Made by a program: the position numbers and the translations under genes. Below are positions 2,899-3,195 of a stretch of 6,008 nucleotides of DNA, in pieces. The notes beneath the pieces were generated by a model that saw nothing but the letters and a program-made list of their open reading frames with translations, was not told the DNA's origin and made no database searches. How positions within the stretch are numbered: position 1 is the stretch's first letter; each line of letters begins with the position of its first letter. Where the stretch lies: IMG/VR virus record IMGVR_UViG_2648501150_000028; one strand, 5' to 3'. Origin of the DNA: a virus. Lineage: Duplodnaviria; Heunggongvirae; Uroviricota; Caudoviricetes.

Positions 2899-3195
2899 AT
2901 GACACGGAACACCATACTCACCCGCACCGCCCTCTACCGTCTGGCCCTGCAGCGTTTCGGGCCGGACGCACAGGCCCTGAAACTGACAGAAGAGGCCGCT
3001 GAACTGGCGGCCAGTGCTGCCCGCAATCTGAACGGACAGGGCAGCGAAAGCGACCTCGCGGCAGAGCTGGCAGACGTGGAAATCATGACAGAGCAATTGC
3101 GCCTTCAGGGGATGGACCGGCTGATTGACTTCCACAAACAGAAAAAACTGGAACGTCTGGCTGCACGACTGGGCGTGATTTACACGAACGAGTAA
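2899..3195 (+). CDS. small MazG-like (all-alpha NTP pyrophosphohydrolase fold) protein, tentative
   Basis: ATG 2899, weak RBS GAGGG 2888-2892. The 98-aa product has two acidic helix motifs spaced as in MazG/HisE-type NTP-PPases: LKLTEEAAELAASAAR and, about 25 aa later, DLAAELADVEIMTEQLRL (compare the E-E-x-x-E-L and E-E-[LI]-x-D-V pattern). Recognised by eye, not searched. Confidence 0.55.
   Translation: MTRNTILTRTALYRLALQRFGPDAQALKLTEEAAELAASAARNLNGQGSESDLAAELADVEIMTEQLRLQGMDRLIDFHKQKKLERLAARLGVIYTNE

Follow-up and report, generated by a model that had tools for sequence, protein, structure and literature searches.

The 6,008-nucleotide (nt) stretch of DNA analysed here (the window; IMG/VR virus record IMGVR_UViG_2648501150_000028, Caudoviricetes) carries on its + strand, at positions 2899–3195 with the stop codon included, a coding sequence that starts with ATG, ends with TAA and encodes a protein of 98 amino acids (aa) and ~11 kDa, predicted to be a minimal nucleoside triphosphate pyrophosphohydrolase (NTP-PPase) of the MazG/HisE fold. 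This open reading frame (ORF) had been pointed out in an initial annotation made from the letters alone, and its limits were confirmed by reading the sequence. A Shine-Dalgarno-like GAGGG, read off the + strand at 2888–2892, overlaps the TGA stop of the preceding gene, and the ATG lies 6 nt further downstream. Three elements stand out within the coding sequence, all on the + strand and recognised by sequence and alignment: motif 1, E31-E32-A-A-E35 (EExxE; 2989–3003), placed in helix α2 (residues 22–44); motif 2, E56-L-A-D59 (ExxD; nt 3064–3075), which together with the adjoining signature V-E61-I-M-x-E65-Q66 spans 3064–3096 in helix α3 (residues 50–91); and a near-invariant basic pair, K83/R86 (3145–3156), close to the C-terminal end of the same helix, whose residues are candidates for phosphate binding. 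The first two elements correspond to the paired acidic helix motifs that the initial annotation had described.

The ORF is a real gene under selection and not a chance reading frame, as judged from its substitution pattern, the size of its family and the retention of its acidic residues. The ratio of nonsynonymous to synonymous substitution rates (dN/dS) was 0.15 relative to the 71%-identical ortholog of Klebsiella phage KP12, with dS of ~1.4. A profile built from the enterobacterial orthologs, run through an exhaustive HMMER search, retrieved 10,432 clusters (50% identity) at E ≤ 1e-3, and 1,885 at E ≤ 1e-10, composed mostly of proteins of 85–110 residues. Moreover, when 299 retrieved relatives and the query were aligned to a broad family profile (A2, built from 67 relatives of 31–70% identity), an acidic residue was found at all of positions 31, 32, 35, 56 and 59 in 284 of the 289 sequences covering them. 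A 136-codon ORF on the minus strand (2800–3210) overlaps the gene and was treated as mechanical, because the family conservation and the dN/dS value concern the + frame; a spurious-ORF reading of 2899–3195 itself is unlikely. Of 5426 complete E. coli genomes, 621 contained the DNA of the gene; every copy was chromosomal and had its product labelled as a hypothetical protein, a label also found in the records of Escherichia phage PhiKM and of KP12. Among isolated phages, a tblastn search of 50,697 phage records detected homologs only in PhiKM, Klebsiella KP12, Escherichia Phi06_2974 B and Klebsiella Kp4866-3, and Mu-type early-region DNA was common to the window and the three of these four phages that were examined.

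Regarding family assignment, the protein matched PHROG 2245, named nucleoside triphosphate pyrophosphohydrolase, over its full length (E = 2.8e-34, residues 1–97), and two further NTP-PPase/MazG-like PHROGs more weakly. The curated family models gave a different picture: a Pfam scan produced no match of the protein to PF03819 or PF12643 at E ≤ 1, so that the gathering threshold was not reached, the best Pfam match was PRA-PH (HisE, PF01503) at 14.5 bits, below the cut-off of 21.3, and the best NCBIfam match was TIGR03188 at 14.3 bits, below the cut-off of 42.7. When the 67 relatives of A2 were scanned singly at E < 0.01, PF03819 was recognised in 16 of them (best 2.2e-5), PRA-PH in 4 and PF12643 in 3. 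The A2 profile, compared with the sequences of the Protein Data Bank (PDB), yielded 11 matches with E < 1, five of which were the MazG-family chains 5ie9, 2q73, 2q5z, 2gta and 1vmg. In the alignment to Bacillus MazG 5ie9, 'iEElaEL' falls over 'TEEMGEL' (of LTEEMGEL) and 'aeEiADV' over 'EEELGDV', which places both motifs in the canonical MazG register. These chains were reached only with the broad profile: in the same PDB sequences, phmmer with the protein itself and hmmsearch with a narrow enterobacterial profile (A1) picked up nothing beyond helical matches at chance level (IWS1, KaiA, antiholin). An hhalign comparison of A2 with E. coli MazG, with a single sequence as template, returned an uninformative probability below 1%. 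No defence-family match was found in PADLOC-DB at E ≤ 0.1 for the protein or for its small neighbours, and no Rfam match at gathering thresholds was found on either strand.

The structure prediction, performed on a single chain, was consistent with this assignment. With A2 as input, AlphaFold returned five concordant models out of five (predicted local distance difference test, pLDDT, 95.5; predicted template modelling score, pTM, 0.80), with helices at residues 9–20 and 22–44 and a long one at 50–91; with a shallow alignment, only one model was produced, with a pLDDT of 84. The predicted all-alpha helical bundle is superimposable on solved members of the superfamily, those named for the fold being the A. 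fulgidus pyrophosphatase 4qgp, E. coli MazG 3cra, the T. maritima MazG-related protein 2yxh and the integron iMazG 2q5z, and its structural neighbours in BFVD likewise bear the name nucleoside triphosphate pyrophosphohydrolase. Such a prediction was one of the checks that the initial annotation had proposed for its MazG/HisE-fold identity, and the MazG-type fold obtained, together with PHROG 2245, the PDB matches of A2 and the acidic residues discussed below, supports that identity.

In the superfamily formed by MazG, HisE and the dimeric dUTPases (Moroz et al. 2005, as cited in PMC10014863), Mg2+ is bound by a tetrad of the form E-x2-E ... E-x2-D within EEXX(E/D) motifs, for example E119/E122/E138/D141 in M. 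tuberculosis MazG and E46/E49/E74/D77 in C. jejuni dUTPase (PMC10014863). A corresponding tetrad, E32/E35/E56/D59, is present in the 98-aa protein on two adjacent predicted helices, with 20 residues separating its halves; the initial annotation had made its proposal depend on such metal-coordinating acidic residues, and the retention given above shows that they are not missing. The basic residues are about as constant, K83 being retained in 284 and R86 in 283 of about 290 relatives, and since solved family members use basic residues on substrate phosphates (PMC10014863), the pair may bind phosphates here as well. Beyond the shared motifs, a family-specific signature was recognised, composed of Y13, A16, G21 and Q25 before motif 1, V60-E61-I62-M63-x-E65-Q66 after motif 2, and K83-x2-R86-L87 near the C terminus. 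The near-invariance of polar and charged residues at an overall identity of 30–45% points to an active enzyme rather than a structural look-alike, and the 98-aa protein is very likely an active all-alpha NTP-PPase.

The protein is kin to the all-alpha NTP-PPases at the level of the superfamily, and neither a member of the Pfam MazG or MazG-like families nor a HisE, because the fold, the tetrad and PHROG 2245 are all found while the Pfam MazG, MazG-like and PRA-PH thresholds are all missed. The nearest single-domain MazG-like proteins are Sulfolobus solfataricus SSO3215 (1vmg), Bacillus MazG 5ie9, B. subtilis YpjD 2gta and the integron iMazG 2q5z/2q73. Compared with canonical single-domain MazG, from which its sequence is too distant to be scored by PF03819 or PF12643, the phage-borne protein has Ala instead of Gly in both motifs (EEAAEL/ELADV versus EEMGEL/EELGDV) and the additional signature of Q25, V-E-I-M-x-E-Q66 and K83-x2-R86. 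E. coli MazG (3cra) differs further in being a tandem-domain protein of 263 aa, and a tblastn search of the phage collection with it gave 20 matches, which included neither PcCB7V nor the phage with the cyanophage MazG. The likeness to PHROG 2245 is strong and full-length, the name of that group being an annotation transferred by remote homology, and no biochemical study of any of its members was found in the literature. The 98-aa protein is thus a further member of an already catalogued phage family, and the finding as such is an ordinary one.

The window covers 5.5 kb at the end of a transposable E. coli prophage of the Mu type (BcepMu-like), and its bases 1–5502 are 99% identical to PhiKM (PQ738613, classified as Bcepmuvirus). 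The genes of the + strand are tightly packed and co-directional. They begin with a MuB-like AAA+ transposition ATPase (332–1498, with the start annotated in PhiKM), identified by Pfam AAA_22 and phrog_296 (DNA transposition protein); it is named Eha protein in the PhiKM record, the mechanical ORF runs from GTG 293 (293–1498) and the deposited start is ATG 332, and a weak HTH_3 match covers residues 17–47 of its N-terminal region. An 89-aa protein (1501–1770; phrog_2041) and a Mu Gam-like host-nuclease inhibitor (1798–2328), the latter recognised by library scans and comparison with PhiKM, come next. The 64-aa Cys-rich protein at 2426–2620 matches phrog_3401 end to end (E = 1.6e-40) and its stop overlaps the start of the following gene (ATGA). 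The PhiKM record places a minus-strand ORF at the equivalent of 2339–2560, overlapping it; the end-to-end match and the ATGA overlap favour the + strand call, which is probably the better one, the PhiKM annotation then being on the wrong strand. A 90-aa protein (2617–2889; phrog_3691) immediately precedes the MazG-like gene, which is followed by a 71-aa hydrophobic membrane protein (3210–3425; phrog_3958). Two genes downstream of the MazG-like gene, at 3386–4105, lies a 239-aa protein whose annotated start in PhiKM corresponds to 3422. It contains the domains DUF2786 (E = 6e-10) and DUF7168 (E = 1e-25), is assigned to PHROG 421 (E = 1e-76) and is widespread as a phage early protein. Two small ORFs separate it from a homolog of GemA (Mu gp16; 4530–4979), found by library scan and comparison with PhiKM, and the final gene of the block encodes a Mor-family transcription activator (4951–5340), recognised in the same way. 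All these features are on the + strand.

This layout is that of a Mu early operon with its 'semi-essential' accessory region. No terminator-like sites were predicted on the + strand between 1755 and the prophage end, and the position of the MazG-like gene in the early operon, already claimed in the initial annotation, is supported by the Mu-like gene order, in particular by synteny with the MuB-like ATPase, Gam, GemA and Mor. The G+C content of the window peaks at 61% in the 400-nt bin 2801–3200, which contains the gene (other bins, 44–60%), and this fits a mosaic accessory region with swapped modules. In KP12 the gene keeps its position and has different neighbours.

The Mu-type prophage ends at 5502 (junction 5502/5503) with the sequence ...TCTAATCA, terminating in CA. 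PhiKM and the prophage copies of other E. coli genomes cease to resemble the window at about 5502–5509, and the genes flanking these copies vary from genome to genome (irp2, yehK, rimK), as expected for random transposition. The flank (5503–6008) matches, at 99–100% identity, the O-type replication gene found in lambdoid phages (cdtI, mEp460, Stx2 phages), and an iteron array is present in it at 5589–5759, with 2.4 copies of a 66-nt unit and a 21-nt sub-period. From this identity and the iterons, the transposable prophage appears to sit in the replication gene and origin of another prophage. The junction 5502/5503 was found in no complete E. coli genome of the collection.

Judged by the genomic contexts of the relatives, the genes of this family are accessory components of early and replication modules in phages. 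The two nearest relatives beyond the enterobacterial cluster belong to Mu-type prophages, in which the gene immediately precedes GemA-Mor and lies downstream of the transposase, a B-like ATPase and, in one of them, Kil-Gam. Altogether, three separate Mu-type phage lineages carry the gene in the early block ahead of gemA-mor, immediately before gemA in two. A 40%-identical branch, abundant in gut metagenomes, occurs in a replication and nucleotide module composed of DNA polymerase A, DNA methylases, ThyX, DUF6378, the MazG-like gene, a VapE primase-helicase and a SNF2 helicase; these contigs derive from one phage lineage and were counted as a single observation. In contigs L004–L013 of this gut branch, a DUF6378 (PF19905) gene of 87–91 aa, the same size as the MazG-like gene, lies four genes upstream of it, with ThyX close by. 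Another branch is located in an unannotated early region upstream of a terminase.

Variation in architecture was also observed among the relatives. Two proteins (P0052, 209 aa, and P0058, 239 aa) carry the minimal domain duplicated in tandem, and the first copy of P0052 lacks the first acidic motif, with 'KAIRHLSKL' replacing EExxEL, which echoes the active/degenerate arrangement of two-domain cellular MazG. In some enterobacterial orthologs, among them P0012, P0030 and P0031 (169 aa), a C-terminal extension of ~70 residues is present, with a conserved 'LP.RELLEDWCGAVPNSAFIGA' and unrelated to any gene of the window; for this reason, the 169-aa relatives P0012 and P0031 are not fusions with the downstream 71-aa membrane protein. 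P0048 (174 aa) has instead an N-terminal extension of ~70 residues.

Taken as a whole, these observations are probably best explained by a single-domain all-alpha NTP-PPase that would be produced from a Mu-type early operon and act on the pool of deoxynucleoside triphosphates (dNTPs). By analogy with solved members, each monomer would form a helical hairpin and pair into a homodimer or tetramer, in which E32 and E35 of helix 2 and E56 and D59 of helix 3, together with E31, would hold one or more Mg2+, while K83 and R86 would contact the substrate phosphates. The enzyme would then hydrolyse a (d)NTP at its alpha-beta phosphoanhydride bond, releasing (d)NMP and pyrophosphate. It would be made from the early transcript along with B, Gam, GemA and Mor, during replicative transposition by the host replisome, and would sanitise or bias the dNTP pool for phage DNA synthesis, either by removing dUTP or oxidised or deaminated dNTPs or by favouring particular dNTPs. 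The inferred parts of this scheme are the oligomeric state, the need for Mg2+, the substrate and the bond at which it is cut, and the role of the enzyme in the phage. For the role in particular, dNTP-pool sanitising or biasing is tentatively put forward as the most likely one, based on the DNA-precursor context of the distant relatives (ThyX, DNA polymerase), on the one well-characterised phage MazG, from a cyanophage, which prefers dGTP/dCTP and has no (p)ppGpp activity (PMC6850273), and on the ability of MazG-like enzymes to replace dUTPase (PMC5122711). No assay of any member of the subfamily was found in the literature, and the substrate is a conventional question.

The foremost alternative is an early hydrolase of the alarmone (p)ppGpp, similar to Atd1 of Pectobacterium phage PcCB7V, which would block the stringent response and blunt abortive infection mediated by toxin-antitoxin (MazF) or TIR-type systems. 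Atd1 resembles the 98-aa protein in being a phage-encoded single MazG-like catalytic domain with twin acidic motifs; its Km for the hydrolysis of ppGpp is about 50 uM, and it rescues cells in which TIR-STING or retron-TIR is toxic (bioRxiv 10.1101/2022.06.09.495361). Moreover, E. coli MazG is housed in the relA-mazEFG locus, and a host-takeover role would be consistent with early expression. The ppGpp specificity of Atd1 is, however, not transferable to the 98-aa protein, as no sequence link between them was obtained: the tblastn search of the phage records recovered four Mu-type enterobacterial phages only and none from Pectobacterium, the presence of PcCB7V in the collection being unconfirmed. 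Substrates vary within the family, dGTP/dCTP being preferred by the cyanophage S-PM2 MazG (PMC6850273) and NTPs/ppGpp being used by the E. coli enzyme, and the cyanophage MazG, long assumed to be a ppGpp hydrolase, neither binds nor hydrolyses ppGpp (PMC6850273), so that this activity is not inferable from the fold. The adjacency of distant relatives to ThyX and DNA polymerase also indicates a DNA-precursor context and not a stress context. An Atd1-like function is accordingly considered unlikely, although it is the strongest of the alternatives.

A dedicated counter-defence role is chemically feasible and still less probable. Under this reading, the enzyme would degrade an immune messenger bearing a pyrophosphate, such as a linear, base-modified dNTP signal like the dITP of Kongming. 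That dITP serves as a genuine immune messenger is established (bioRxiv 10.1101/2024.12.20.629578), all-alpha NTP-PPases are listed with the enzymes that process dITP and further non-canonical NTPs (PMC10014863), and the semi-essential early region of Mu is, by textbook account, a typical home of accessory and host-interaction genes. Nevertheless, the known anti-Kongming factor, Dmp, is a dNMP phosphatase and not a pyrophosphohydrolase, and Kongming is triggered by phage dNMP kinases (bioRxiv 10.1101/2024.12.20.629578), none of which is encoded in the window; nor did the protein match any PADLOC or anti-defence family. Cyclic nucleotides are poor candidates as substrates, since the alpha-beta pyrophosphate bond on which the fold acts is missing from cyclic oligonucleotide signals and cGG is not cleaved by Atd1 (bioRxiv 10.1101/2022.06.09.495361). 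The wider proposition that the signature-bearing subfamily, recurrent before gemA-mor, is a dedicated host-takeover or counter-defence enzyme destroying (p)ppGpp or a dITP-type messenger, rather than a house-cleaning one, is likewise unlikely.

That the protein could be a non-catalytic helical look-alike of MazG, working as a regulator or adaptor in the way that phage dUTPases moonlight in the derepression of Staphylococcus aureus pathogenicity islands (SaPI), is very improbable, given that hundreds of relatives share, with few exceptions, five acidic residues, two Gln and two basic residues, in the pattern of an active site. Finally, a HisE-type phosphoribosyl-ATP pyrophosphohydrolase (HisE/PRA-PH; 1yvw, 3c90, 6j22), serving as an auxiliary histidine-biosynthesis gene, can practically be dismissed: the protein, although its best Pfam match is to this family, scores far under both HisE cut-offs, relatives matching MazG outnumber those matching PRA-PH and score higher on it, no his genes are nearby, the neighbours being Mu-type phage early genes, and HisIE is already present in the host.

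Returning to the dNTP-pool enzyme, the evidence gives no preference for a signalling substrate over ordinary dNTP-pool maintenance, and the gain is one of annotation: the hypothetical protein of the E. coli genomes, PhiKM and KP12 can now be named, with good confidence, as an NTP pyrophosphohydrolase of the MazG/HisE superfamily. A very large family, numbering over 10,000 clusters at 50% identity, had been missed by the standard Pfam and NCBIfam models, and the protein adds one more instance to the phage-borne minimal nucleotide pyrophosphohydrolases. Should the protein prove to act on an alarmone or on a signalling NTP, it would be counted with the few enzymatic anti-defence factors. Mu-type transposable phages, which replicate by means of the host polymerase, recurrently keep such an enzyme in their semi-essential early region.
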